Source: Escherichia coli
GTDB lineage: Bacteria > Pseudomonadota > Gammaproteobacteria > Enterobacterales > Enterobacteriaceae
Direction: 5' to 3' (one strand)
NCBI RefSeq assembly: GCF_003334785.1
Contig: NZ_QOWV01000002.1
DNA length: 64,000 nucleotides
A model generated the notes under the pieces. That model did no database searches and was not told the origin of the DNA. It was given only the letters and a program-made list of their open reading frames with translations. A program made the translations under genes and the position numbers. This document shows, piece after piece, positions 1,575 through 50,386 of the stretch; positions within the stretch are counted from its first letter, which is position 1; each line of letters starts with the position of its first letter.

Positions 1575-3158
1575 TCACACCTCGTACTCCATCTCGCCAT
1601 CCTTACGCAGCGGTATAATCTGCACCTTCTGCACGCGATGGCTTTCTACCTGCAACGTTTTAAGCAAATAATCCCCCACCTGAACTTCTTCGCCAGGTTT
1701 TGGAATACGCTGCAAATACTCCATCAACAGCCCGGCAATGGTGTGATATTCACGTTTTTCATCCAGCGGCAGCGGCACATATTGCACCAGATCCTCCAGC
1801 GGCATATGACCATTCGCCGTCCAGGAACCGTCCGCATTCTTCTGAATATCATGGCGGGCGTCGATCTCTTCCACTTCGTTCGGTAAGTTACCGGCAATGG
1901 TTTCAGTGACGTCACTTAATGTCACAATCCCTTCCACCGAGCCAAACTCATCCACCACAAAAGCAAAGTGCGTGCGGGCATTACGGAACTGCTCCAGGGC
2001 AGGTAACAACGGCAAGGTTTCCGGGAACACCAGCGGCTGGCGAATCAACACCCGCAGGTTGAGCGGTTCGCCGCGCAGAGACTGTTGTAGCAGGTCGATA
2101 ACGTGAACAACACCGAGCAAATCTTCTGCGTCATCACCGTCGGTAACCACCAGCCGCGTATGCTGATTTCGCTCCAGCAACTGGCGGATTTCTTCTTCCG
2201 GCGCGTTGAGATCGATATGCTCAATATCGTGGCGCGACGTCATAATGCTGCTGACGGTACGCTGGTTAAGATTAAGTACCCGCTCAATCATCCGCCGTTC
2301 CTGCGGATTAAAGATCTGCTGGTTACCATGATCCACCAGCATGGACGCGGTTTCGGCGTCCAGTTCCGCATCTTCTTTTTGCCCGCTAAGCAGGCGCATT
2401 ACCGCTTCGGTAGTCCGCTGGCGCAGCGTCTGGTTAGCGGAAAGAAAACGTCGCCGGTTAAAGATAGCCAACTGATTGAGCGCCTCGATCATCACCGAGA
2501 AACCAATGGCAGCGTACAGGTAGCCTTTCGGAATGACGAAGCCGAAACCTTCTGCCACCAGGCTAAAGCCAATCATCAACAGGAAGCTTAAGCAGAGAAT
2601 AACGATCGTCGGGTGACTGTTAACAAATTGCGTTAACGGCTTGCTGGCCATCAACATCAGGCTGATAGCGATAACCACGGCGGCCATCATGACCAGTAAA
2701 TGGTCGACCATCCCGACGGCGGTAATCACTGAGTCGAGTGAGAAAATGGCGTCCAGTACCACAATTTGCGTCACCACGCCCCAGAACTTCGCACCTTTGC
2801 GTTGTGTGGGATTATTGCTGTCTTTCCCTTCCAGCCGTTCGTTCAGCTCCATCGTGGCTTTGAACAACAGGAAGAAACCACCAAACAGCATGATTAAGTC
2901 GCGGGCGCTAAAGGTAAACGAGCGGAAGCTGAACAGCGGTTGAGTCAGGGTGACCAGCCAGGAGATTGACGCCAGCAGTAACAGGCGCATTAACATCGCC
3001 AGCAGCAGCCCGGTAACCCGTGCGCGGTCGCGCTGCTTCGGCGGTAGTTTTTCGGCGAGGATGGCAATAAAGACCAGGTTATCAATGCCGAGGACCAGTT
3101 CGATCACAATCAGCGTGATTAACCCGGCCCAGATAGACGGATCGGCAATCCATTCCAT
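1575..3158 (-). CDS. yegH: Inner-membrane protein YegH (TerC-type membrane domain plus CBS/CorC domains)
   Basis: ORF 1575..3224; hydrophobic N-terminal half and CBS/CorC-like C-terminal half; start placed at internal Met ([10 protein letters not shown]) to give the expected 527 aa. Confidence 0.8.
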
Positions 3159-3595: not shown

Positions 3596-3638
3596 AAATC
3601 AGTGTATTGGTAGCTAAAAAGCCAGGGGCGGTAGCGTG
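3596..3638 (+). promoter_or_regulatory. JUMPStart element containing the ops motif GGCGGTAGCGTG (3627..3638) in the wza leader
   Basis: Exact ops 12-mer read in sequence, about 180 bp upstream of the wza start; same element repeated at 28098..28136. Confidence 0.8.
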
Positions 3639-3816: not shown

Positions 3817-4956
3817 ATGATGAAATCCAAAATGAAATTGATGCCATTATTGGTGTCAGTAACCTTGATAAGCGGTTGCACAGTACTTCCGGGCAGCAAT
3901 ATGTCGACGATGGGCAAAGACGTCATCAAACAGCAGGACGCTGATTTCGATCTCGACAAAATGGTGAATGTTTATCCGCTGACCCCGCGCCTGATTGACC
4001 AATTACGCCCACGCCCGAATGTAGCGCGCCCCAATATGACGCTGGAAAGTGAGATCGCGAATTACCAGTATCGCGTCGGGCCGGGGGACGTTCTTAATGT
4101 CACCGTCTGGGATCACCCGGAACTCACCACGCCAGCCGGTCAGTACCGCAGCTCCAGCGACACCGGCAACTGGGTACAGCCTGACGGCACTATGTTTTAC
4201 CCGTATATCGGCAAGGTCCACGTAGTCGGGAAAACGCTCGCTGAAATCCGCAGTGATATTACCGGGCGCTTAGCGACGTACATCGCTGACCCGCAGGTGG
4301 ACGTTAATATCGCCGCCTTCCGCTCACAAAAGGCCTATATCTCCGGTCAGGTGAATAAATCCGGTCAACAGGCGATCACCAACGTGCCACTGACTATTCT
4401 CGACGCCATCAACGCCGCAGGTGGCCTGACCGACACCGCTGACTGGCGCAACGTGGTGCTAACACACAATGGTCGTGAAGAGCGCATTTCTTTGCAGGCG
4501 CTGATGCAAAACGGCGACCTCAACCAGAATCGCCTGCTTTACCCCGGCGATATTCTCTACGTGCCACGTAATGATGATCTGAAAGTATTTGTGATGGGTG
4601 AAGTGAAGAAACAGAGCACCCTGAAAATGGACTTTAGCGGCATGACCCTGACTGAAGCCCTGGGCAATGCTGAAGGCATCGACATGACCACCTCCAACGC
4701 CAGCGGCATCTTTGTCATTCGTCCGCTGAAAGGCGAGGGCGGGCGTAACGGCAAGATTGCCAATATCTACCAGCTGGATATGTCCGATGCCACGTCGCTG
4801 GTGATGGCGACAGAATTCCGCCTGCAACCTTATGACGTGGTGTATGTCACCACCGCCCCGGTTTCCCGCTGGAACCGTCTGATCAATCAGTTGCTGCCAA
4901 CTATTAGCGGTGTCCGTTACATGACGGATACAGCCAGCGACATTCATAACTGGTAA
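3817..4956 (+). CDS. wza: Outer-membrane polysaccharide export lipoprotein Wza
   Basis: 379 aa; lipoprotein signal [21 protein letters not shown]; first gene of the cluster. Confidence 0.95.
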
Positions 4957-18215: not shown

Positions 18216-18293
18216 ACCGAGATGTAAATAACGACAAAAACAAAATTGGCCGTTTCGGTCAGGGCCAACTATTGCCTGAAAAAGGGTAACGAC

Positions 18294-19664
18294 ATGAAAA
18301 AATTAACCTGCTTTAAAGCCTATGATATTCGCGGGAAATTAGGCGAAGAACTGAATGAAGATATCGCCTGGCGCATTGGTCGCGCCTATGGCGAATTTCT
18401 CAAACCGAAAACCATTGTGTTAGGCGGTGATGTCCGTCTCACCAGCGAAACCTTAAAACTGGCGCTGGCAAAAGGTTTACAGGATGCGGGCGTTGACGTG
18501 TTGGATATTGGTATGTCCGGCACCGAAGAGATCTATTTCGCCACGTTCCATCTCGGCGTGGATGGCGGCATTGAAGTTACCGCCAGCCATAATCCGATGG
18601 ATTATAACGGCATGAAACTGGTGCGCGAAGGGGCTCGCCCAATCAGCGGTGATACCGGACTGCGCGACGTCCAGCGTCTGGCAGAAGCCAACGACTTTCC
18701 TCCCGTCGATGAAACCAAACGCGGTCGCTATCAGCAAATCAACCTGCGTGACGCTTACGTTGATCACCTGTTCGGTTATATCAATGTCAAAAACCTCACG
18801 CCGCTCAAGCTGGTGATCAACTCCGGGAACGGCGCAGCGGGTCCGGTGGTGGACGCTATCGAAGCCCGCTTTAAAGCCCTCGGCGCACCTGTGGAATTGA
18901 TCAAAGTGCACAACACGCCGGACGGCAATTTCCCCAACGGTATTCCTAACCCGCTGCTGCCGGAATGTCGCGACGACACCCGCAATGCGGTCATCAAACA
19001 CGGCGCGGATATGGGCATTGCCTTTGATGGCGATTTTGACCGCTGTTTTCTGTTTGACGAAAAAGGGCAGTTTATCGAGGGCTACTACATTGTCGGCCTG
19101 CTGGCAGAAGCGTTCCTCGAAAAAAATCCCGGCGCGAAGATCATCCACGATCCACGTCTCTCCTGGAACACCGTTGATGTGGTGACTGCCGCAGGTGGCA
19201 CGCCGGTAATGTCGAAAACCGGACACGCCTTTATTAAAGAACGTATGCGCAAGGAGGACGCCATCTACGGTGGCGAAATGAGCGCCCACCATTACTTCCG
19301 TGATTTCGCTTACTGCGACAGCGGCATGATCCCGTGGCTGCTGGTCGCCGAACTGGTGTGCCTGAAAGGAAAAACGCTGGGCGAACTGGTGCGCGACCGG
19401 ATGGCTGCGTTTCCGGCAAGCGGTGAGATCAACAGCAAACTGGCGCAACCCGTTGAGGCGATTAATCGCGTCGAACAGCATTTTAGCCGTGAGGCGCTGG
19501 CGGTGGATCGTACCGATGGCATCAGCATGACCTTTGCCGACTGGCGCTTTAACCTGCGCACCTCCAACACCGAACCGGTGGTGCGCCTGAATGTGGAATC
19601 GCGCGGTGATGTGCCGCTGATGGAAGCGCGAACGCGAACTCTGCTGACGTTGCTGAACGAGTAA
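18294..19664 (+). CDS. cpsG: Phosphomannomutase (colanic-acid copy)
   Basis: 456 aa from [14 protein letters not shown]; phosphohexomutase active-site region TASHNP. Confidence 0.95.
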
Positions 19665-22619: not shown

Positions 22620-22808
22620 TTGCCGGATGCGGCGTAAAACGCCTTATCCGTCCTACGGTTCTGTGCTCGGGACCTGTAGGCCTGATAAGACGCGTCAGCG
22701 TCGCATCAGGCACTGAATGCCGGATGCGGCGTGAACGCCTTATCCGGCCTACGGTTCTGTGCTCGGGTCTTGTAGGCCTGATAAGACGCGTCAGCGTCGC
22801 ATCAGGCA
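22620..22808. repeat. Tandem BIME: two near-identical units of about 100 bp, each with a pair of inverted REPs
   Basis: Motif gccggatgcggcgt.aacgccttatccg.cctacggttctgtgctcggg.cctgtaggcctgataagacgcgtcagcgtcgcatcaggca occurs twice in tandem. Confidence 0.75.
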
Positions 22809-26771: not shown

Positions 26772-26945
26772 ATTTGCGACCATTCCTGGAAAAATGGAGC
26801 CATACTTAGGAACAATGCTACTGCAATCCACAACGAAGCGGCGTAACATCACAAGTAATTCAGTAATCAATTCAGGGTAATTGATGCTGGCGAAAAAAAT
26901 CGAACAAGCTATAATTCAGCAACCATTTTACAGGTGGATGAAATA

Positions 26946-27839
26946 ATGACGAATTTAAAAGCAGTTATTCCTGTAGCGGGTCTTGGGATGCATATGTTGC
27001 CTGCCACTAAGGCGATTCCCAAAGAGATGCTACCGATCGTCGACAAGCCAATGATTCAGTACATTGTTGACGAGATTGTGGCTGCAGGGATCAAAGAAAT
27101 CCTCCTGGTAACTCATGCGTCCAAGAACGCGGTCGAAAACCACTTCGACACCTCTTATGAATTAGAATCTCTTCTTGAACTGCGCGTGAAGCGTCAACTA
27201 CTGGCGGAAGTTCAGTCCATCTGCCCGCCGGGCGTGACCATTATGAACGTACGTCAGGGCGAACCTTTAGGTTTAGGTCACTCCATTTTGTGTGCACGAC
27301 CCGCCATTGGTGACAACCCATTTGTCGTGGTGCTGCCAGACGTTGTGATCGACGACGCCAGTGCCGACCCGCTGCGCTACAACCTTGCAGCCATGATTGC
27401 GCGCTTCAACGAAACGGGCCGCAGCCAGGTGCTGGCAAAACGTATGCCGGGTGACCTCTCTGAATACTCCGTCATTCAGACCAAAGAACCACTGGATCGT
27501 GAAGGTAAAGTCAGCCGCATTGTTGAATTTATCGAAAAACCGGATCAGCCGCAGACGCTGGATTCAGACATCATGGCCGTTGGTCGCTATGTGCTTTCTG
27601 CAGATATTTGGCCGGAACTTGAACGCACTCAGCCTGGTGCATGGGGGCGTATTCAGCTGACTGATGCCATCGCTGAACTGGCGAAAAAACAGTCTGTTGA
27701 TGCCATGCTGATGACAGGTGACAGCTACGACTGCGGTAAAAAAATGGGTTATATGCAGGCATTTGTGAAGTATGGACTACGCAACCTGAAAGAAGGGGCG
27801 AAGTTCCGTAAAGGTATTGAGAAGCTGTTAAGCGAATAA
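26946..27839 (+). CDS. galF: UTP-glucose-1-phosphate uridylyltransferase paralog GalF
   Basis: Start at [14 protein letters not shown]; flanks the O-antigen cluster. Confidence 0.9.
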
Positions 27840-28097
27840 TGAAAATCTGACCGAATGTAACGGTTGATAAGAAAATTATAACGGCAGTGAAGATTCGTGG
27901 CGAAAGTAATTTGCTGCGAATATTCCTGCCGTTGTTTTATATAAACAATCAGAATAACAACGAGTTAGCAATAGGATTTTAGTCAAAGATTTCCAGGATT
28001 TTCCTTGTTTCCAGAGCGGATTGGTAAGACAATTAGCGTTTGAATTTTTCGGGTTTAGCGCGAGTGGGTAACGCTCGTCACATCGTAGACATGCATG

Positions 28098-28136
28098 CAG
28101 TGCTCTGGTAGCTGTAAAGCCAGGGGCGGTAGCGTG
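28098..28136 (+). promoter_or_regulatory. JUMPStart element with ops motif GGCGGTAGCGTG (28125..28136) upstream of the O-antigen operon
   Basis: cagtgctctggtagctgtaaagccaggggcggtagcgtg read directly; near-repeat of 3596..3638. Confidence 0.85.
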
Positions 28137-28195
28137 CTGAAATTATAAAGTCATTCTTATAGAACATCGCATTTCAATAATATAATTACACCTAA

Positions 28196-29452
28196 ATGAA
28201 TAGGATACAACGTGTGCATAATTATTTAAGGCTTAAAGATAAAATAAAAAACGTATTTTTAGGGTTATATATATTGCAGTTATTTAATTATATCGCGCCA
28301 TTGGTAATTATCCCTATCCTGATAAAATATATTGGGTTGGGGGAATATGGGGAATTAGTCTATATTACATCTATTTATCAAATAGTGGCTTTGTTTATTG
28401 ATTTTGGCTTTACTTACACAGGACCTGTGGTTGCTGCGAGACATAAATGTGAGATCCAAAATTTACAGCGCTATTACTCAATAGTTGTTCTTTTAAAATC
28501 ATTGCTTTTTATAATTGCATTAACATGTGTATTTTTATTGTGCAGATTAAATATAGTCCACTTGTCATTTTTGGGGTTTTTGTCAATTTTTCTATGCTCT
28601 ATTGGTAATATAGTATCGCCCAATTGGTTTTTGCAGGGGATTGGTGATTTTAAAAAACTTTCATACTCTCAAGTAATAGTGAGAATAACATTGTTTATCA
28701 TGCTTCTTGTTTATGTCTGTAGTGGCGGAGATAATGTTTTTATCTTAAGTTTTTTACAAAATGCAACATTACTCATATGCTGTATATACTTATGGCCAAA
28801 TATTCATATTAGCCATGTTGTTCATCTTAAACCTAATGAATGCATTGTGGAATTTAAGAAGGCAGGAAATGTTTTTATTGGCGTAATAGGTACGATTGGT
28901 TACAATGGTCTAATTCCTGTGTTAATTGGAAACCTTTGCGGTAATACGAGTCTTGGTGTTTTTTCAATCGTTCAAAAAATGACAACAGCATGTCAAAGCC
29001 TAATTAATCCAATATCACAGTATATGTTATCACAAGTTTCAGAAATTAAACCTCAAGATGAACTGTTTTATTATAGAATTAAAAAAAGTTTTTTTGTGCA
29101 TTTAACAATTAGCATAATTGCATGTTTATGTTATATGGGGTTAGGGCAATATGTGGCGACTTTTATAGGTAAAGTTGACGTTTCATTTGTTATTATTTTA
29201 TATGCGTCAGTAATTACAATTTTTTCATCTTTAAATAATGTCCTTGGTATACAGTTTCTTATACCGACAGATAATGTAAAAATACTGCGAAGTATAAATG
29301 TTATAGCGGGAATTATTGTTGTTAGTTTGTCCTGGCTGTTAATATCACGCTTTGACATTCTGGGGGGGGTTTTATTAAATCTAATTGGTGAGTTTCTTGT
29401 ATTCAGTATGCTAGCTTTTATTGCCCATCGTAAGTGGGGAGCGAGAGTATAA
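28196..29452 (+). CDS. wzx: O-antigen flippase Wzx (MOP superfamily)
   Basis: 418 aa, about 12 predicted membrane spans, AT-rich; first gene after JUMPStart. Confidence 0.75.
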   Translation: MNRIQRVHNYLRLKDKIKNVFLGLYILQLFNYIAPLVIIPILIKYIGLGEYGELVYITSIYQIVALFIDFGFTYTGPVVAARHKCEIQNLQRYYSIVVLLKSLLFIIALTCVFLLCRLNIVHLSFLGFLSIFLCSIGNIVSPNWFLQGIGDFKKLSYSQVIVRITLFIMLLVYVCSGGDNVFILSFLQNATLLICCIYLWPNIHISHVVHLKPNECIVEFKKAGNVFIGVIGTIGYNGLIPVLIGNLCGNTSLGVFSIVQKMTTACQSLINPISQYMLSQVSEIKPQDELFYYRIKKSFFVHLTISIIACLCYMGLGQYVATFIGKVDVSFVIILYASVITIFSSLNNVLGIQFLIPTDNVKILRSINVIAGIIVVSLSWLLISRFDILGGVLLNLIGEFLVFSMLAFIAHRKWGARV

Positions 29453-30795
29453 TGAAAGTGAAGGCGGTTCCTGCTATTACATTCTATTTAAGTTTAATGC
29501 TGACAATTTTAGTGTTACTGTTTGGTAATGAACCAAATAAATCACAATATATTCTTGTTATAGCAACGATAACAGTTTTTTATATCGCGTATATCACTAA
29601 TAAAATAACTTCTCCGGCCAGCCTTCTCGTTATATCATCTTTTGTGTTTTTAGGTTGTCGACCTTTATTATCTTTGTTTGCAAACTATGATTACAGGATT
29701 GCCGATTGGTTTATTGAAGGATATATGGATGACGATGTGATTATGGCTAACTATGCTATAACATTAATGTATTATGGTTATACATTGGGACTAATTCTAT
29801 GCAGAAATACTGAAAAAATTTATCCGCATGGATCATATCCAGAGAAACAATTGCTAAAAATAAAGTTTCTTTTGACTTTATTTTTTCTGGGTTCGATAGG
29901 TATGGTTGTGAAAGGGATATTCTTTTTTAACTTTATAGAATCTAATAGTTATGTTGATATATATCAATCAAATATAACAACGCCAATAGGTTATGATTTT
30001 CTGTCTTATTTGTTTTATTGTTCTTTTTTCCTTATATGTGCGTTTCATATACAGTTCAGAACAAATAAAAAATTTCTTTTTATTGCGATATGCATTGCTG
30101 CATTTAGCACCTTGAAGGGTAGTCGTAGTGAAGCTATAACGTTTCTTTTAACGGTTACATGTATATATTTTAATGAAGTAAAGACAAGAAACTTACGTTT
30201 GCTGATTACAATGATTTTTGTTTTTAGCGTCATTTTTGTGATTAGTGAATTTATCTCAATGTGGCGCACTGGAGGGAGTTTTATTCAATTAATGCAGGGT
30301 AATAATCCTGTTATAAACTTTGTATACGGCATGGGAGTATCATATCTTTCCATTTATCAATCAGTAAAACTACAACTATTGTCAGGGGGGTATAATGTTA
30401 CCTATCTATTCAGCCAGTTAATAATAACTTGCTCGTCAATATTTAATGTTAAATTGAGCTTGCCGGAAATAAGCTATAGCCATTTGGCCTCATACACAGC
30501 AAACCCAGAACTATATAATCTTGGGTTCGGACTTGGGGGAAGTTATTTAGCAGAATCGTTTTTAGCATTTGGTCTTATTGGGTGTTTCATAATACCCTTT
30601 TTACTTTTACTTAATTTAAATGTATTGGAAAAATACACAAAAAACAAACCAATCATATATTTTGTTTATTATAGTGTGTTGCCACCTATATTATTCACAC
30701 CAAGAGAGACTTTGTTCTATTTCTTCCCCTATCTTGTCAAAAGTATATTTGTTGCTTTTTTAGTTACATTATACATCCAGTATAAAAAGGATTGA
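29452..30795 (+). CDS. wzy: O-antigen polymerase Wzy (putative)
   Basis: Highly hydrophobic polytopic protein; ATG at 29452 overlaps the wzx stop (TAATG); the ORF track offers an upstream start at 29434. Confidence 0.65.
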   Translation: MKVKAVPAITFYLSLMLTILVLLFGNEPNKSQYILVIATITVFYIAYITNKITSPASLLVISSFVFLGCRPLLSLFANYDYRIADWFIEGYMDDDVIMANYAITLMYYGYTLGLILCRNTEKIYPHGSYPEKQLLKIKFLLTLFFLGSIGMVVKGIFFFNFIESNSYVDIYQSNITTPIGYDFLSYLFYCSFFLICAFHIQFRTNKKFLFIAICIAAFSTLKGSRSEAITFLLTVTCIYFNEVKTRNLRLLITMIFVFSVIFVISEFISMWRTGGSFIQLMQGNNPVINFVYGMGVSYLSIYQSVKLQLLSGGYNVTYLFSQLIITCSSIFNVKLSLPEISYSHLASYTANPELYNLGFGLGGSYLAESFLAFGLIGCFIIPFLLLLNLNVLEKYTKNKPIIYFVYYSVLPPILFTPRETLFYFFPYLVKSIFVAFLVTLYIQYKKD

Positions 30796-30800
30796 CGAAA

Positions 30801-31661
30801 ATGTCAGAAAAAAATGTCAGCATAATAATCCCAAGTTATAACAGGGCTCATATTCTTAAGGAGGTCATACCAAGTTATTTTCAGGATGAGACTTTAGAGG
30901 TAATAGTTATCAATGATGGATCAACAGATAATACAAATAGTGTATTAGCTGAACTGAAGGAAAAATATTCTCAATTAGTTATTTTAGAAAATGATACGAA
31001 CAAAAAACAGATGTATTCTAAAAACCGAGGGATTGAAATAGCCAAAGGGAAATATATTTTTTTTGGTGATGATGACTCTTACCTCTTACCCGGTGTTATA
31101 TCTCGGTTATTGGCTACAAAATATGAGACAGGCGCTGATGTAATCGGCGCAAGAATACTCTATATGAATAATAACGAGAAAACAATTGAAGATTGCATAA
31201 ATCGACATAAAACAGAGGGGCGTTTTGTTAGTGATTTAAATAGATTGGATTTTAGTTATACATGTGATTTGGACCATCCGATTGAATGTTTTTATGCACA
31301 GTCTATTATTCTAGCTGAAAGGGAACTAATATCGAAATATCGATTTGATATATCTTATACGGGAAACTGCTATCGTGAGGAAACTGATTTCATGTTATCT
31401 CTTTTTATAAAAAATAAAAAATTTATATATGATTCAAAGGCTCTGTTAATAAATTTACCTCCACGAAAAGCGACGGGAGGGGCAAGAACAGCTAATCGAT
31501 TAAAATATCATTATGAAAGTTGCATAAATAATTATAGATTTTTAAAAAAATATAATGATAATTTGAATCTTCTTTCAGGACAAAAGCATGCTATATTTTA
31601 CCGACAGTGTCAATTCGTTCTGCTAAAAATTAAGTCGTTTATCGGGAAGTTTTTAAAATGA
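30801..31661 (+). CDS. Glycosyltransferase family 2 (O-unit synthesis)
   Basis: N-terminal SIIIPSYNRA...INDGSTDNT and downstream DDD motif typical of GT2; ATG 30801 preceded by aagga. Confidence 0.75.
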   Translation: MSEKNVSIIIPSYNRAHILKEVIPSYFQDETLEVIVINDGSTDNTNSVLAELKEKYSQLVILENDTNKKQMYSKNRGIEIAKGKYIFFGDDDSYLLPGVISRLLATKYETGADVIGARILYMNNNEKTIEDCINRHKTEGRFVSDLNRLDFSYTCDLDHPIECFYAQSIILAERELISKYRFDISYTGNCYREETDFMLSLFIKNKKFIYDSKALLINLPPRKATGGARTANRLKYHYESCINNYRFLKKYNDNLNLLSGQKHAIFYRQCQFVLLKIKSFIGKFLK

Positions 31662-32689
31662 TTGTATATATTGCCGCGTATAATGGTTCAGGAGGGCAAG
31701 GTGGGGTGGAAAGGGTTGTTGCCCAACAATGTAACATTCTTAAAAATTTGGGGGTTAAAGTCATTATACTTGATAAAGCATACTTCAAAATTTCTAACAA
31801 AATTCGTAACAAAAAAATACAAGTAGCACTTTATCCAATATTAGTTTCTCTTTATTTAACCTTACAAAAATTACGTGGCGTGACGTTTAAAGTTATTGCG
31901 CATGGCTATTGTTCTCCTTTTTATAGGAATGACATCTTAATAGCTCATGGCAATATGAAATGTTATTTTCAAACAGTCATGAAAAAAAAACCTAATCGAT
32001 TGTCCGGCAGTGGTCTTTTATCTTTCTATGAGCGTTTGGCTGGATCATTCTCAAAAAATATCTGGGCTGTTTCAAATAAGGTTAAAAGTGAATGGAATGA
32101 GCTTTACAATATTAATTCACATAAAATTAAAGTTGTTCGAAATTTTATAAATCTTGAACAATTTGATTGCACTGATGTTAATGAAGCACAATATGTGACA
32201 TTTGTCGGGCGATTGGAAAAAGGAAAAGGAATAGATGATCTGTATTACATATGTAAAAATCTGCCAGATACTTCCTTCCATTTAGTTTCAAGTATTCCCG
32301 CCCCACAAAATTTTGCTTCGCTAAATAATGTTCTGACCAGCATTGCTGTCCCCTATGCGAAAATGCCAGAAATATTTAAGAAATCCAGAGTACTTATTTT
32401 ACCGTCCTATTATGAAGGATATGAGCTGGTTACTATTGAAGCGCTATGCTGTGGTTGCCCTGTGATAGGCTATAACGTTGGTGCAATTAGAGAGTTGTAT
32501 GCTGAAAGTTTTCCTGGCGTGTTTATTGCCAATAATAAAGAAGATTTAGCACAAGTAGCCTACGAACTAATTAGTCTTGATAATGAAAAATATTATCATT
32601 TGAGACAAACTATTTATAGCAAGCGTGAGCTTTTTTCTGAAGAGAGATATGCGGAAATTTTAACGGCGGCATTTAATGAAAAAAAATAA
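31658..32689 (+). CDS. Glycosyltransferase, GT4/group-1 type
   Basis: 343 aa; C-terminal LPSYYEGYELVTIEA E-x7-E motif. Confidence 0.75.
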   Translation: MIVYIAAYNGSGGQGGVERVVAQQCNILKNLGVKVIILDKAYFKISNKIRNKKIQVALYPILVSLYLTLQKLRGVTFKVIAHGYCSPFYRNDILIAHGNMKCYFQTVMKKKPNRLSGSGLLSFYERLAGSFSKNIWAVSNKVKSEWNELYNINSHKIKVVRNFINLEQFDCTDVNEAQYVTFVGRLEKGKGIDDLYYICKNLPDTSFHLVSSIPAPQNFASLNNVLTSIAVPYAKMPEIFKKSRVLILPSYYEGYELVTIEALCCGCPVIGYNVGAIRELYAESFPGVFIANNKEDLAQVAYELISLDNEKYYHLRQTIYSKRELFSEERYAEILTAAFNEKK

Positions 32690-33821
32690 GAAACTATGTC
32701 TCATTTCAATTAACTCATATAATGAACTTACCGGAGGAGGAGTATATTTACGTACGCTTGTTAGTTTTCTACAAAAACAGAATGTTAATTTAACACTTAT
32801 TGATAAAAAATCTTCAGGTAAACTATTCGAAGACAATACTTTTCAACATATATCATTTATTAAAGGTAAACGTCAGGATATTATATCCAGGCTTTTTTTT
32901 ATACCATCATTTTATGTCCCTTATATTTTCTCAATAATTAAAATTTTACGGAAGCAAGATATTCTAGCTTTTCACAACTCTCGACTTGGATTGTTATGTC
33001 TGCTTTTTAGAATACTCATGCCCCATAAAAAGATCATATTGTTTACGGATAACTTCGAATATGACTTAATAAGACAAAAAGATAAAAACATAACTACTTT
33101 TGTTGAAAAAATAATTGTTTATCTCAATGAATTTATCGGGCTTAAGAATTCACATTTAGTTAGCTATATTACCCGGCAAGATAAAAATGCAATGGATAAA
33201 TTTTATGGGGTTAAAAAAAGCAGAAATTTAATTCTCCCTGTGATATTTAGTAGAGAAAAGCCAACTGATGTATTATCAGCTCACTTTATTAATGAGTATA
33301 ATCGATTGAATAATGATAATAGGAAAAAAGTAGTATTTACTGCATCTTTTGATTTTTTTCCAAATATAGATGCTGCCAACTATGTTTTAAATGCAGCAAA
33401 GTCGAATAATGATTATTGCTATATTTTGGCAGGTAGGAAAAGTACTACTTTGAATCTTCCTGATTTGGATAATTTATTTTTTTTCGATAATCTATCTAAT
33501 AGTGAAATGTCATATTTATTATCTGCTTGTGATATTTTTTATTCTCCTATAGTTTTAGGAAGTGGAATGAAAACAAAAATTGCAGAAGCGCTATCATATG
33601 GATTATATATTTATGCGACAGAGCATTCCTTAATCGGCTATGATGAAATTATAAACAACAAGGAGTGTGTTAAAAAAATCTCACATTTGGATGAGGAATT
33701 TCCTAAAGATTTCAAGGTGAAAAGTATCAATAAACAGCTAATAATGTCTTATCAGCAAAAATATTATTCACATTATCGGTTTAATGGCCATGAACTTGAC
33801 ATGATAAATATTGACGATTAG
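32676..33821 (+). CDS. Glycosyltransferase (probable GT4-like)
   Basis: 381 aa; general GT-B-like layout; weaker motif support than neighbours. Confidence 0.6.
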   Translation: MKKNKKLCLISINSYNELTGGGVYLRTLVSFLQKQNVNLTLIDKKSSGKLFEDNTFQHISFIKGKRQDIISRLFFIPSFYVPYIFSIIKILRKQDILAFHNSRLGLLCLLFRILMPHKKIILFTDNFEYDLIRQKDKNITTFVEKIIVYLNEFIGLKNSHLVSYITRQDKNAMDKFYGVKKSRNLILPVIFSREKPTDVLSAHFINEYNRLNNDNRKKVVFTASFDFFPNIDAANYVLNAAKSNNDYCYILAGRKSTTLNLPDLDNLFFFDNLSNSEMSYLLSACDIFYSPIVLGSGMKTKIAEALSYGLYIYATEHSLIGYDEIINNKECVKKISHLDEEFPKDFKVKSINKQLIMSYQQKYYSHYRFNGHELDMINIDD

Positions 33822-33837
33822 TTAGTGGAGATATAAT

Positions 33838-34845
33838 ATGAACATATTAGTAACTGGTGGTGCTGGATATATCGGATCTCATACGGCTATTGAATTACTA
33901 AATGCAGGTCATGAGATTATCGTTCTGGACAATTTCAGTAATGCTTCATACAAGTGTATCGAAAAAATAAAAGAAATTACTCGACGTGATTTTATAACAA
34001 TTACAGGAGATGCTGGGTGTAGGAAGACACTCTCCGCTATTTTCGAGAAACACGCCATAGATATAGTTATTCATTTTGCTGGCTTTAAATCTGTTTCAGA
34101 GTCTAAAAGTGAACCCTTAAAGTATTACCAAAATAATGTTGGAGTGACCATTACTTTATTACAGGTAATGGAAGAGTACAAAATTAAAAAATTTATCTTT
34201 AGTTCATCTGCGACAGTCTATGGTGAACCAGAGATAATTCCAATTTCAGAAACAGCTAAAATTGGAGGAACTACGAATCCATATGGCACATCGAAATATT
34301 TTGTTGAAAAAATTCTAGAGGATGTTAGTTCCACGGGAAAACTGGATATAATTTGCTTGAGATATTTTAATCCTGTCGGTGCTCATTCTAGTGGTAAAAT
34401 AGGTGAAGCTCCATCTGGTATCCCTAATAATCTTGTCCCTTATTTATTGGATGTTGCAAGTGGTAAACGTGATAAATTATTTATTTATGGCAATGATTAT
34501 CCTACTAATGATGGAACAGGTGTAAGAGATTTTATTCATGTTGTTGACTTAGCGAAAGGTCATTTGGCTGCAATGAATTATTTAAGTATCAATTCGGGAT
34601 ATAATATCTTTAATCTTGGTACAGGAAAAGGTTATTCAGTGCTTGAATTAATCACTACATTTGAAAAATTAACAAACATTAAGGTCAATAAATCTTTTAT
34701 AGAGAGAAGGGCAGGGGATGTTGCGTCTTGTTGGGCTGATGCAGATAAAGCTAATTCTTTATTGGACTGGAAAGCCGAACAAACTCTAGAACAGATGTTA
34801 TTGGACTCGTGGCGTTGGAAAAAAAATTATCCAGACGGATTCTGA
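33838..34845 (+). CDS. gne: UDP-hexose / UDP-N-acetylhexosamine 4-epimerase (GalE/Gne family)
   Basis: 335 aa; N-terminal TGGAGYIGSH Rossmann motif and YGTSK catalytic motif of short-chain epimerases. Confidence 0.8.
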   Translation: MNILVTGGAGYIGSHTAIELLNAGHEIIVLDNFSNASYKCIEKIKEITRRDFITITGDAGCRKTLSAIFEKHAIDIVIHFAGFKSVSESKSEPLKYYQNNVGVTITLLQVMEEYKIKKFIFSSSATVYGEPEIIPISETAKIGGTTNPYGTSKYFVEKILEDVSSTGKLDIICLRYFNPVGAHSSGKIGEAPSGIPNNLVPYLLDVASGKRDKLFIYGNDYPTNDGTGVRDFIHVVDLAKGHLAAMNYLSINSGYNIFNLGTGKGYSVLELITTFEKLTNIKVNKSFIERRAGDVASCWADADKANSLLDWKAEQTLEQMLLDSWRWKKNYPDGF

Positions 34846-34865
34846 ATAAAAAAGGTTTCAGTTTT

Positions 34866-36071
34866 ATGAATCAATCAGAGCAGAGAAAAAAAATACTGGT
34901 TCTTACACCTCGCTTTCCCTACCCTGTCATTGGAGGGGATAGATTAAGAGTCTATATGTTATGTAAAGAACTTTCCAAAAAATATGATCTTATTCTTCTG
35001 AGCTTATGTGATCAACCACTAGAACTTGAAATAAATATAAATGACTCGGTCTTCAAAGAAATTCATCGTGTCTATCTACCAAAATATAAATCATATTATA
35101 ATGTATTTAAAGCTTTGGTTACGCAAAAACCGTTGCAAATTGCTTATTATCAATCGGACACATTTAAGAATAAATACAATAAATTAATTAAACAATGCGA
35201 TGCAGTATTTTGTCATCTAATAAGAGTTGCTGATTATGTTAAGGATACAGACAAGTTCAAAATTCTTGATATGACAGATGCAATATCTTTGAATTACAGT
35301 CGCGTTAAAAAATTAGCAAGTAAAAAAAGTTTGCGTGCAATTATTTATTCTCTGGAACAAAAAAGATTAGAATCATATGAGCGTTCTGTGGCGAATCTTT
35401 TTGATTTGACCACTTTTATTTCATCCGTAGACCGTGACTATCTCTACCCTAATCCGGGCAGTAATATCCATATAGTCAATAATGGGGTTGATACATCAGC
35501 CTTGAGATATATAAAAAGAGAAATAAAAATCGATAAGCCGGTGGAACTTATATTTATCGGAAATATGTATTCTTTACAAAATATGGATGCTGCAAAAAAT
35601 TTTGCTAAGAATATTTTACCTTGCTTGCATGATGAGTTTAATATTATTTTTAAAGTGATTGGTAAGATCTCAGAAACTAATAAAAATATATTAAATTCAT
35701 TTAAAAATACAATTGCTTTAGGTACTGTTGATGATATCAATTCTTCCGCTTCTACAGGGCATATAGGTATATGTCCTGTTCGTCTTGGAGCAGGCGTACA
35801 AAATAAAATTCTTGAATACATGGCTTTAGGTTTACCATGTATTACATCTAGCATTGGTTATGAAGGTATTAATGCAAAATCTGGTAGCGAAATTTTTGTT
35901 GCAGATACAGTAGAGCAATATAAAAACGTACTAAGAGAAATAATTTACGATTATAATCGTTATACTGAAGTGGCTGAAAATGCCCGTAGTTTTGTAGAAA
36001 ATAATTTTTCTTGGGAATCAAAAGTTGCCAATTTAATGAATATATTAGATGAGAAATTATATGAACAATAA
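34866..36071 (+). CDS. Glycosyltransferase, GT4/group-1 type
   Basis: Start at [20 protein letters not shown] (internal Met of ORF 34809..36071); GT4 layout. Confidence 0.7.
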
Positions 36072-37500
36072 TAAAATTATTACACCTATCATTATGGCAG
36101 GTGGTTCAGGCAGTCGGTTGTGGCCACTATCAAGAATTCTCTATCCGAAACAATTTCTTAGCCTAAACGGTAGTCATACCATGCTTCAAACAACGGCTAA
36201 TCGTCTGGATGGTTTGGATTGTACCAACCCTTATGTCATTTGTAATGAACAACACCGCTTTATAGTTGCTGAACAGCTTAGAAAAATCGATAGATTGACT
36301 TCAAAGAATATCATCCTTGAGCCTGTTGGGCGTAACACTGCCCCTGCAATTGCATTAGCGGCGTTGCTGATGTCTAAGTCTGATAAAAGTGCAGATGATC
36401 TTATGCTCGTACTGGCTGCAGATCACGTTATATTAGATGAAGAAAAATTTTGTAACGCTGTTAGATCGGCAATTCCATACGCTGCTGATGGGAAATTGGT
36501 AACATTTGGTATAATTCCAGACAAAGCAGAAACTGGTTATGGTTATATACATCGAGGACAATATATTAATCAGGAAGATTCGGATGCATTTATAGTGTCA
36601 TCATTTGTTGAAAAGCCAAATCATGAGACAGCCACTAAATATCTTGCTTCCGGTGAGTATTATTGGAATAGCGGTATGTTTTTGTTTAGTGCAAATCGTT
36701 ATATAGAGGAACTTAAACAATTTCGGCCTGATATTTTATCCGCTTGTGAAAAAGCAATTGCTTCAGCGAACTTTGACCTTGATTTTGTGCGTTTAGATGA
36801 AAGTTCTTTCTCTAAGTGTCCTGAAGAGTCAATTGATTACGCTGTAATGGAAAAAACAAAAGACGCAATTGTTATTCCAATGGATGCTGGCTGGAGTGAT
36901 GTCGGTTCATGGTCTTCTCTTTGGGAAATTAATGATAAAGACTCAGACGGCAACGTAATAGTTGGGGATATTTTCTCTCATGAAACAAAGAATTCTTTCA
37001 TATATGCCGAATCGGGAATTGTTGCTACAGTGGGAGTGGAAAATTTAGTTGTTGTCCAAACAAAGGATGCCGTTCTTGTCTCAGAGAGAAATAAAGTTCA
37101 GGATGTAAAGAAAATAGTCGAACAAATTAAAAATTCAGGTCGTAGCGAGCATTATGTTCATCGCGAAGTATATCGTCCTTGGGGTAAATATGATTCCATT
37201 GACACAGGGGAGCGTTATCAGGTCAAACGTATAACAGTAAATCCTGGTGAAGGACTTTCTTTACAAATGCACCATCATAGGGCAGAACATTGGATCATAG
37301 TTTCTGGAACTGCAAAGGTGACTATAGGTTCTGAAACTAAGATTCTTAGCGAAAATGAATCTGTTTACATACCTCTTGGTGTAATACACTGCTTGGAAAA
37401 TCCAGGGAAAATTCCTCTTGATTTAATTGAAGTTCGTTCTGGATCTTATTTAGAAGAAGACGATGTTATCCGTTTTCAGGACCGATATGGTCGCAGCTAA
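36061..37500 (+). CDS. manC: Mannose-1-phosphate guanylyltransferase (O-antigen copy)
   Basis: Protein close to CpsB ([14 protein letters not shown]), but DNA is AT-rich and diverged from cpsB. Confidence 0.9.
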
Positions 37501-37582
37501 ATTTTTGATAATGTAACGTTAGTAGAAGAACGCTAATATTTTTAGTTAATCTGTAATAAGTATTATTTGTTTAAGGTATATC

Positions 37583-38953
37583 ATGTCGAGTTTAACCTGC
37601 TTTAAAGCCTATGATATTCGCGGGAAATTAGGCGAAGAACTGAATGAAGATATCGCCTGGCGTATTGGGCGTGCCTATGGCGAATTTCTCAAACCGAAAA
37701 CCATTGTGTTAGGCGGTGACGTCCGCCTCACCAGCGAAACCTTAAAACTGGCGCTGGCGAGAGGTTTACAGGATGCGGGCGTCGATGTGCTGGATATCGG
37801 CATGTCCGGCACCGAAGAGATCTATTTCGCCACGTTCCATCTCGGCGTGGATGGCGGCATCGAAGTTACCGCCAGCCATAATCCGATGGATTATAACGGC
37901 ATGAAGCTGGTTCGCGAGGGGGCTCGCCCGATCAGCGGAGATACCGGACTGCGCGACGTCCAGCGTCTGGCTGAAGCCAACGACTTTCCTCCCGTCGATG
38001 AAACCAAACGCGGTCGCTATCAGCAAATCAACCTGCGTGACGCTTACGTTGATCACCTGTTCGGTTATATCAATGTCAAAAACCTCACGCCGCTCAAGCT
38101 GGTGATCAACTCCGGGAACGGCGCAGCGGGTCCGGTGGTGGACGCTATCGAAGCCCGCTTTAAAGCCCTCGGCGCACCTGTGGAATTGATCAAAGTGCAC
38201 AACACGCCGGACGGCAATTTCCCCAACGGTATTCCTAACCCGCTGCTGCCGGAATGTCGCGACGACACCCGCAATGCGGTCATCAAACACGGCGCGGATA
38301 TGGGCATTGCCTTTGATGGCGATTTTGACCGCTGTTTTCTGTTTGACGAAAAAGGGCAGTTTATCGAGGGCTACTACATTGTCGGCCTGCTGGCAGAAGC
38401 GTTCCTCGAAAAAAATCCCGGCGCGAAGATCATCCACGATCCACGTCTCTCCTGGAACACCGTTGATGTGGTGACTGCCGCAGGTGGCACGCCGGTAATG
38501 TCGAAAACCGGACACGCCTTTATTAAAGAACGTATGCGCAAGGAGGACGCCATCTACGGTGGCGAAATGAGCGCCCACCATTACTTCCGTGATTTCGCTT
38601 ACTGCGACAGCGGCATGATCCCGTGGCTGCTGGTCGCCGAACTGGTGTGCCTGAAAGAGAAAACGCTGGGCGAACTGGTACGCGACCGGATGGCGGCGTT
38701 TCCGGCAAGCGGTGAGATCAACAGCAAACTGGCGCAACCCGTTGAGGCGATTAACCGCGTGGAACAGCATTTTAGCCGTGAGGCGCTGGCGGTGGATCGC
38801 ACCGATGGCATCAGCATGACCTTTGCCGACTGGCGCTTTAACCTGCGCTCCTCCAACACCGAACCGGTGGTGCGCCTGAATGTGGAATCGCGCGGTGATG
38901 TGCCGCTGATGGAAGAAAAGACAAAACTTATCCTTGCGTTATTGAACAAGTAA
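37583..38953 (+). CDS. manB: Phosphomannomutase (O-antigen copy)
   Basis: 456 aa; DNA nearly identical to cpsG across most of its length. Confidence 0.95.
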
Positions 38954-39116: not shown

Positions 39117-40523
39117 ATGTCAAAGCAACAGATTGGCGTCGTCGGTATGGCAGTGATGGGGCGCAACCTTGCGCTCAACATCGAAAGCCGTGGTTATACC
39201 GTCTCTATTTTCAACCGTTCCCGTGAGAAGACGGAAGAAGTGATTGCCGAAAATCCAGGCAAGAAATTGGTTCCTTACTTTACGGTAAAAGAGTTTGTTG
39301 AATCTCTGGAAACGCCTCGTCGCATCCTGTTAATGGTGAAAGCAGGTGCAGGCACGGATGCTGCTATTGATTCCCTCAAGCCATACCTCGATAAAGGTGA
39401 CATCATCATTGATGGTGGTAACACCTTCTTCCAGGATACTATTCGTCGTAACCGTGAGCTTTCTGCAGAAGGTTTTAACTTCATTGGTACCGGTGTTTCC
39501 GGCGGTGAAGAAGGCGCGTTGAAAGGGCCGTCCATCATGCCAGGTGGGCAGAAAGAAGCCTATGAACTTGTTGCGCCGATCCTGACCAAAATCGCCGCAG
39601 TGGCTGAAGACGGTGAGCCATGCGTTACCTATATCGGTGCCGATGGCGCAGGCCATTATGTGAAGATGGTACACAACGGTATTGAATACGGCGATATGCA
39701 GCTGATTGCTGAAGCCTATTCGTTGCTTAAAGGCGGCCTTAATCTCTCTAACGAAGAACTGGCGCAGACGTTTACCGAGTGGAATAACGGTGAACTGAGC
39801 AGCTACCTGATCGACATCACCAAAGATATCTTCACCAAAAAAGATGAAGACGGTAACTACCTGGTTGATGTGATTCTGGATGAAGCAGCAAACAAAGGTA
39901 CCGGTAAATGGACCAGCCAGAGCGCGCTGGATCTCGGCGAACCGCTGTCGCTGATTACCGAGTCTGTGTTTGCACGTTATATCTCGTCTCTGAAAGATCA
40001 GCGCGTTGCCGCGTCTAAAGTTCTCTCTGGCCCGCAAGCACAGCCAGCAGGCGACAAGGCTGAGTTCATCGAAAAAGTTCGCCGTGCGCTGTATCTTGGC
40101 AAAATCGTTTCTTACGCTCAGGGCTTCTCTCAGCTGCGTGCTGCGTCTGAAGAATACAACTGGGCTCTGAACTACGGCGAAATCGCGAAGATTTTCCGTG
40201 CTGGCTGCATCATCCGTGCGCAGTTCCTGCAGAAAATCACCGATGCTTATGCCGAAAATCCGCAGATCGCTAACCTGCTGCTGGCTCCGTACTTCAAGCA
40301 AATTGCCGATGACTACCAGCAGGCGCTGCGTGATGTCGTCGCATATGCAGTACAGAACGGTATCCCGGTTCCGACCTTCGCCGCTGCGGTTGCCTATTAC
40401 GATAGCTACCGTGCCGCTGTTCTGCCTGCGAACCTGATCCAGGCACAGCGTGACTATTTCGGTGCGCATACTTATAAGCGCATTGATAAAGAAGGTGTGT
40501 TCCATACTGAATGGCTGGATTAA
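39117..40523 (+). CDS. gnd: 6-phosphogluconate dehydrogenase, decarboxylating
   Basis: 468 aa; N-terminal [20 protein letters not shown]-binding motif. Confidence 0.95.
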
Positions 40524-40762: not shown

Positions 40763-41938
<1,176 letters not shown>

Positions 41939-50234: not shown

Positions 50235-50272
50235 CAATAAAAAAGCCCCCGGAAGGTGATCTTCCGGGGGCT
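50235..50272 (-). terminator. his attenuator terminator hairpin
   Basis: Minus strand reads agcccccggaag-atcac-cttccgggggc followed by UUUUUUAUU, between hisL and hisG. Confidence 0.85.
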
Positions 50273-50335
50273 TTCTCATGCGTTCATGCACCACTGGAAG
50301 ATCTGAATGTCTTCCAGCACACATCGCCTGAAAGA

Positions 50336-50386
50336 CTAGTCAGGATGATGGTGATGATGGTGGTGTTTAAATTGAACGCGTGTCAT
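50336..50386 (-). CDS. hisL: his operon leader peptide (MTRVQFKHHHHHHHPD)
   Basis: Minus-strand 16-codon ORF with seven consecutive His codons upstream of the attenuator. Confidence 0.9.
   Translation of the reverse strand: MTRVQFKHHHHHHHPD

Follow-up and report, generated by a model that had tools for sequence, protein, structure and literature searches.

An exact JUMPStart/ops element ahead of wzx in an O6 O-antigen locus of Escherichia coli

Introduction

The JUMPStart sequence, as outlined in Hobbs & Reeves 1994 and in the Rfam entry RF01707, lies upstream of the O-antigen (rfb) clusters of E. coli and Salmonella, and the founding genetics of the family can be traced through Hobbs & Reeves 1994, Nieto et al. 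1996, Leeds & Welch 1997, Marolda & Valvano 1998 and Wang et al. 1998. A review of RfaH operons places ops/JUMPStart in the waaQ and rfb leaders, which are without a ribosome-binding site, and the same element is also found before rfaQ, hly, kps and further loci, which do not lie at the edge of a cassette (PMC9765446).

The counterpart that has been mapped experimentally is the O6 locus of uropathogenic E. coli CFT073, in which RfaH ChIP-seq yielded a 30.6-fold peak that starts at ops, spans wzx to wzzB and is gone in ΔrfaH (Hustmyer et al. 2022, PMC9765446). The wzx unit of this strain is coated by H-NS/StpA; the occupancy of RNA polymerase collapses along it in ΔrfaH, with travelling ratios of 0.1–0.34 of wild type, and the RfaH dependence is relieved in Δhns ΔstpA (PMC9765446). 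The start of the unit, as predicted from RNA-seq, lies 138 nt before wzx and 67 nt upstream of ops, where a σ70 ChIP peak is also found (PMC9765446). The wza promoter of CFT073 is silenced by H-NS, and RfaH is visible there, from wza to wcaM, only once both H-NS and StpA are deleted (PMC9765446).

Here we describe the spacer between galF and wzx in a 64-kb stretch of E. coli DNA (64,000 nucleotides, called the window below; all positions are those of the window). We conclude that positions 28098..28136 are almost certainly the standard, RfaH-dependent JUMPStart/ops leader of the E. coli O6 O-antigen operon. Such an element before the O6 wzx is already known and nothing in it is new; since all of it is established knowledge, the result is one of routine annotation, not of discovery.

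Results

The JUMPStart/ops element and its flanking genes

The spacer, its flanking genes and the element itself are laid out as follows.

26946..27839, + strand: galF, the conserved gene upstream of the O-antigen locus (NCBIfam TIGR01105, 685 bits, above the cut-off)
28098..28136, + strand: JUMPStart, 39 bp, exact 39-mer CAGTGCTCTGGTAGCTGTAAAGCCAGGGGCGGTAGCGTG, Rfam RF01707
28105..28123, + strand: hairpin of the Rfam JUMPstart model, CUGGU / 9-nt loop / GCCAG, from the structure line of the Rfam alignment
28125..28136, + strand: ops element GGCGGTAGCGTG, exact 12-mer at the 3' end of JUMPStart
28196..29452, + strand: wzx, O6 O-antigen flippase of 418 aa (Pfam Polysacc_synt PF01943 and record annotation)

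The interval 27840..28195, singled out in an earlier note on this DNA, runs exactly from the first position after the galF stop to the last before the wzx start. The galF reading frame is open from a GTG at 26934, the RefSeq start being the ATG at 26946, and the gene is named galF in a RefSeq record that is 100% identical over the intergenic query. The earlier note had put a 39-bp JUMPStart with ops at 28098..28136, about 60 bp before wzx. Both statements hold: the exact 39-mer lies on the + strand, the Rfam model matches at the same coordinates (60.0 bits against a gathering score of 35, E = 1.5e-13, over the full-length model, positions 1–38), and the measured distance from the 3' end of JUMPStart to the wzx ATG at 28196 is 59 nt, so that ops starts 71 nt before the gene. 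The identity of wzx rests on PF01943 and on RefSeq records 99.9–100% identical over the stretch, in which it is annotated as "O6 family O-antigen flippase". Nothing in the analysis speaks against the identification of JUMPStart/ops before wzx.

Within the 64 kb, the only exact matches to the ops consensus GGCGGTAGnnTG are those at 3627..3638 and 28125..28136, and partial matches elsewhere in the window are located inside ORFs. The element is also highly significant: neither the 39-mer nor the 21-mer common to the two JUMPStart copies of the window occurs in dinucleotide-preserving shuffles of the window (100 of them for the 39-mer) with up to three mismatches tolerated. Taken alone, the 8-mer GGCGGTAG counts for little, because it has four sites in the window against 1.5 expected and three of the 100 shuffles reach four. 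Its sites at 3040 and 16425 were considered as further ops elements and rejected, as they mismatch the 12-nt consensus and both lie within coding ORFs.

The ops element at 28125..28136 is intergenic and on the + strand, like wzx, which places it on the non-template strand; by analogy with CFT073, it is the site at which RfaH is loaded and the polymerase pauses. JUMPStart as a whole precedes a polysaccharide cluster on the same strand (wzx, wzy, glycosyltransferases, gne, manC and manB, all +).

Probable terminator hairpin, candidate promoters and leader

The remainder of the spacer holds further features, several of them predicted.

27878..27943, + strand: long hairpin (27878..27935) with GUUUUAU on its 3' side, just past the galF stop
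28005..28033, + strand: best candidate σ70 promoter, −35 TTGTTT (28005..28010), 17-bp spacer, −10 GACAAT (28028..28033), from a position weight matrix (PWM)
28021..28048, + strand: weaker alternative promoter, −35 TTGGTA (28021..28026), 16-bp spacer, −10 AATTTT (28043..28048), PWM score 5.1
28060..28078, + strand: stem-loop with a 7-bp stem, ahead of JUMPStart in the predicted 5' leader, present in both the minimum-free-energy and the centroid fold
28137..28195, + strand: O6-specific AT-rich leader, 59 nt, 24% GC, from composition and a Shine–Dalgarno check

The long hairpin has a folding energy of −32.4 kcal/mol (z = −6.6), and none of 200 shuffles is equally stable. It stands in the same place in CFT073, K-12 and O7 (z from −6.1 to −7.9) despite sequence differences, and is weaker in O157. 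These features suggest that 27878..27943 is probably the intrinsic terminator of galF, which would insulate the O-antigen promoter. A simple terminator scan of the spacer returned no terminator, its limits on loop and stem passing over this hairpin. Rfam microRNA-precursor matches at 27866..27941 were set aside, as they are far below the gathering score and are accounted for by the long hairpin; short ORFs of the spacer (20–36 aa) were likewise rejected, having no coding support and overlapping the hairpin or JUMPStart.

Promoter prediction over 27840..28097, which the earlier note had proposed as a check, gave a divided answer. A consensus scan at its thresholds found nothing between the galF hairpin and JUMPStart; the PWM scan used instead did find candidates. 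The top one in this interval, TTGTTT/GACAAT, scores 8.4, a value attained by 0.3% of window positions, and predicts a start at about 28039..28041. Both of its hexamers are retained in the O6, O16, O7 and O157 spacers of a five-way alignment, the highly divergent O157 spacer reading GATAAT. The alternative TTGGTA/AATTTT predicts a start at about 28055..28058, which fits the RNA-seq-predicted start of the CFT073 unit (equivalent to 28058, some 18 nt downstream of the start implied by TTGTTT/GACAAT); its −10 part is absent in O157. By alignment, TTGTTT/GACAAT implies a leader of 172–173 nt in K-12 and O7. Promoter mapping of the O7 rfb cluster reportedly gave an untranslated leader of about 173 nt, a figure that would agree with this promoter and was not used as evidence. 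A literature search for a start site at nucleotide resolution (JUMPstart, rfbB) returned nothing usable. Transcription is thus predicted to start near 28040 or near 28058, the CFT073 value not being nucleotide-precise; as either start puts ops inside the leader, the mechanism considered below is unaffected.

The stem-loop at 28060..28078 begins 2 nt past the CFT073-equivalent predicted start. It is closed by a G·U pair, for which CFT073 has G-C and O7 has A-U; O157 lacks the segment. Downstream of JUMPStart, the AT-rich leader carries no Shine–Dalgarno-like sequence in the 20 nt before wzx, and none was found before wza either.

Conservation of the spacer across genomes and serogroups

Over the interval 27700..29500, the window is closest to E. 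coli W-like strains (99.9–100%), and it is 98.2% identical to CFT073, Nissle 1917 and 536. The spacer of CFT073 is identical to that of the window at 350 of 356 positions, JUMPStart and the 59-nt leader being 100% identical, and the six single-base differences (27914, 27922, 27989, 28078, 28079 and 28089) all lie upstream of JUMPStart, none of them within the candidate promoter hexamers. Both loci head an O6 cluster, with ops GGCGGTAGCGTG 71 nt before wzx (NC_004431 2400391..2400402 in CFT073; PMC9765446).

At the megablast level, the spacer is matched in 4024 of 5426 complete E. coli genomes, with at least 80% of it covered in 2732, and most of the matches listed end at query positions 296–298, that is, at the 3' end of JUMPStart. 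In the five-way alignment, the identity of JUMPStart is 100% with CFT073, 100% with K-12, 97% with O7 and 82% with O157, whereas that of the 59-nt leader falls from 100% with CFT073 to 31–47% with the other serogroups. Likeness to other serogroups ends at 28137, and beyond it lies serogroup-specific DNA of about 30% GC. At the 3' end of JUMPStart the GC content drops from about 0.5 to about 0.3, and it is low until about 37500 (0.28–0.39 between 28000 and 37500; galF and gnd are at about 0.5). The common end of the matches, the divergence of the leader and the drop in GC together mark JUMPStart as the last conserved block before an exchangeable AT-rich serogroup cassette, which is a well-known arrangement.

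The galF–rmlB spacers of K-12 (O16) and O7 are organized in the same manner. The 39-mer is the same in K-12 and has one difference in O7; the element closes the conserved, galF-proximal part of the spacer, about 60–75 nt before the first gene of the cluster, and the candidate promoter and the upstream hairpin are also present. Unlike in O6, where the first gene is wzx, rmlB comes first in these clusters, and the leader is unrelated (31–37% aligned identity). The O157 spacer has retained just the promoter-like hexamers and the 3' portion of JUMPStart. In some genomes, O157 and others, the match to the spacer covers just its first 52–61 or its first 206 nt, and the galF–JUMPStart spacer thus has several allelic classes.

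Two RefSeq records labeled DH5alpha (NZ_CP026085.1 and NZ_CM135829.1) carry the O6 wzx/wzy cluster and are 99.9–100% identical to the window, like E. coli W. In true K-12 (MC4100), rfbB follows JUMPStart. Judged from these sequences, the strain labels of the two records are probably wrong.

The JUMPStart copy ahead of wza

A further copy of the element heads the colanic-acid operon.

3600..3638, + strand: first JUMPStart copy, Rfam RF01707 at 57.3 bits, with ops at 3627..3638

The earlier note had this copy at 3596..3638. The element is there, but its start was placed 4 nt too far upstream. Aligning the two copies, another check proposed in that note, gave 34 of 39 positions identical. The last 21 nt are the same and the five differences fall at positions 6–8 and 17–18, in keeping with the claim that the copies agree in the ops core and the flanking gccagggg and diverge upstream. 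The first stem pair, C-G in the wzx copy, is U·G in the wza copy, and two of the five differences lie in the hairpin loop. Resemblance ceases right after the final G, and the flanking DNA is unrelated on both sides. Each copy lies on the strand of its own operon, ahead of a first gene that lacks a Shine–Dalgarno sequence; they differ in their distance to that gene, ops lying 190 nt before wza (3817..4956), the same spacing as in CFT073 (PMC9765446), and 71 nt before wzx.

The O6 cluster downstream

28196 to 38953, + strand: wzx, then O6 wzy, four glycosyltransferase genes, gne/galE, manC and manB
39117..40523: gnd
40772..41938: ugd, followed by wzzB

The annotations of the near-identical RefSeq records identify the window as the colanic-acid, O-antigen and his region of an O6 E. 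coli. By analogy with CFT073, wzx is the first gene of the RfaH-dependent unit. This unit shows traits that make it prone to polarity: it is long and AT-rich, and its first gene is without a Shine–Dalgarno sequence.

At about 37500, by manB, the GC content steps from about 0.3–0.39 to about 0.5. At the DNA level, the O6 manB (37592..38915) and the colanic-acid cpsG (18303..19626) are 98.0% identical, whereas manC and cpsB share only 66%. The sequences suggest that the two phosphomannomutase genes have undergone gene conversion or have recombined with each other.

Discussion

We propose the following model for the expression of the O6 O-antigen operon, which relies in large part on what has been described for CFT073. 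Transcription would be initiated within the conserved portion of the galF–wzx spacer, at a σ70 promoter for which TTGTTT-17-GACAAT, with a start at about 28040, is the best candidate. On reaching ops (28125..28136), RNA polymerase would pause, and the ops bases of the non-template strand would be exposed. RfaH would recognize the exposed ops DNA, bind the elongation complex and remain bound to it. The bound factor would then suppress pausing and Rho-dependent termination, counteract H-NS/StpA filaments on the serogroup-specific DNA of 30% GC, and help to recruit the ribosome to the wzx start, which has no Shine–Dalgarno sequence. Through this combination of anti-pausing and anti-termination, counter-silencing and ribosome recruitment, the polymerase could reach the distal genes manB, gnd, ugd and wzzB. 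The colanic-acid operon would be headed by the same signal at wza. The earlier note had suggested that the two operons share RfaH-dependent control; this reading, transferred from CFT073, is supported because that near-identical locus shows both RfaH loading and RfaH-dependent progression of the polymerase, and ChIP-seq in that strain found RfaH at both ops sites, at wza once H-NS and StpA were deleted, the colanic-acid unit being silenced at initiation under laboratory conditions.

Could the element instead act mainly as RNA, with the hairpin at 28105..28123 of the nascent transcript, for instance, stabilizing the ops pause from the RNA exit channel or binding a factor, and with the non-template DNA not being the signal? 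The 3' end of the hairpin lies 12 nt ahead of ops position 11 (28135), a stem-to-pause spacing typical of hairpin-stabilized pauses. Moreover, both copies in the window fit the 5-bp stem, with differences that fall in the loop or leave the bases paired (C-G to U·G). The Rfam entry for JUMPstart treats it as a structured cis-regulatory RNA, and RirA, an ops-containing 5'-UTR RNA from waaQ, is reported in a review to bind RfaH–RNAP. Against this, the fold of the leader is no stabler than that of shuffles (z = −0.38), the stem is just 5 bp with no double-sided compensatory change between copies, and the part that is invariant across serogroups is the 3' ops half, not the 5' flank of the stem. Biochemistry and structures place RfaH recognition on the non-template ops DNA, and the ops pause is classed as hairpin-independent, which also counts against an RNA signal. 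On balance, we consider a primarily RNA-based element improbable; a role for the JUMPStart hairpin RNA in addition to RfaH loading is possible. A related idea is that the leader might give rise to a short, stable RNA that contains ops, comparable to the RirA of the waaQ leader, and that this RNA would titrate RfaH and cross-regulate the wza, waa and O-antigen operons. It is prompted by the end of the JUMPStart hairpin 12 nt before the ops pause position and by the stem-loop at 28060..28078 near the predicted 5' end, and we regard it as a long shot.

The sharp end of serogroup likeness at the 3' end of JUMPStart, together with the drop in GC, invites the view that the 39-mer owes its retention solely to recombination, being a junction of shared sequence on the 5' side of the O-antigen cassette through which entire clusters can be swapped, and that it plays no regulatory role. 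Indeed, the point at which the likeness ends suggests that the whole galF–JUMPStart block serves as the left arm for cassette exchange. The same element is, however, found before wza and at other loci that do not border a cassette, and in CFT073 RfaH loads at the wzx ops and RNA polymerase fails to traverse the unit without RfaH (PMC9765446). A junction role is compatible with the regulatory role and is no replacement for it; as the sole reason for retention, it is scarcely credible. Chance resemblance to JUMPStart, for which one might cite the recurrence of the 8-mer in shuffled sequence, can be dismissed altogether given the absence of the 39-mer and the 21-mer from the shuffles, the Rfam E value and the retention of the element in thousands of genomes.

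What is the relevance of an RfaH-dependent JUMPStart/ops leader at this position? It explains the full-length transcription of a long, AT-rich and horizontally exchanged O-antigen operon, and with it the loss of O antigen and of virulence in rfaH mutants. In addition, annotation and serotyping can make use of the 3' end of JUMPStart as the left-hand limit of the exchangeable serogroup cassette.

Several other RNA-related features were detected in the window. An algC RNA motif (Rfam RF02929, 78 bits) lies at 18240..18289 (+) in the cpsB–cpsG spacer of the colanic-acid operon; the 82 bp that separate manC from manB in the O6 cluster showed no counterpart. A REP-type element, naRNA4, lies between wzxC and wcaK at 22679..22749 (−; Rfam, 79.7 bits). 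The histidine operon leader at 50237..50360 (−; 131.6 bits) and the enterobacterial sRNA STnc240 at 52658..52732 (+; 68.2 bits) are expected neighbors of the O-antigen region.
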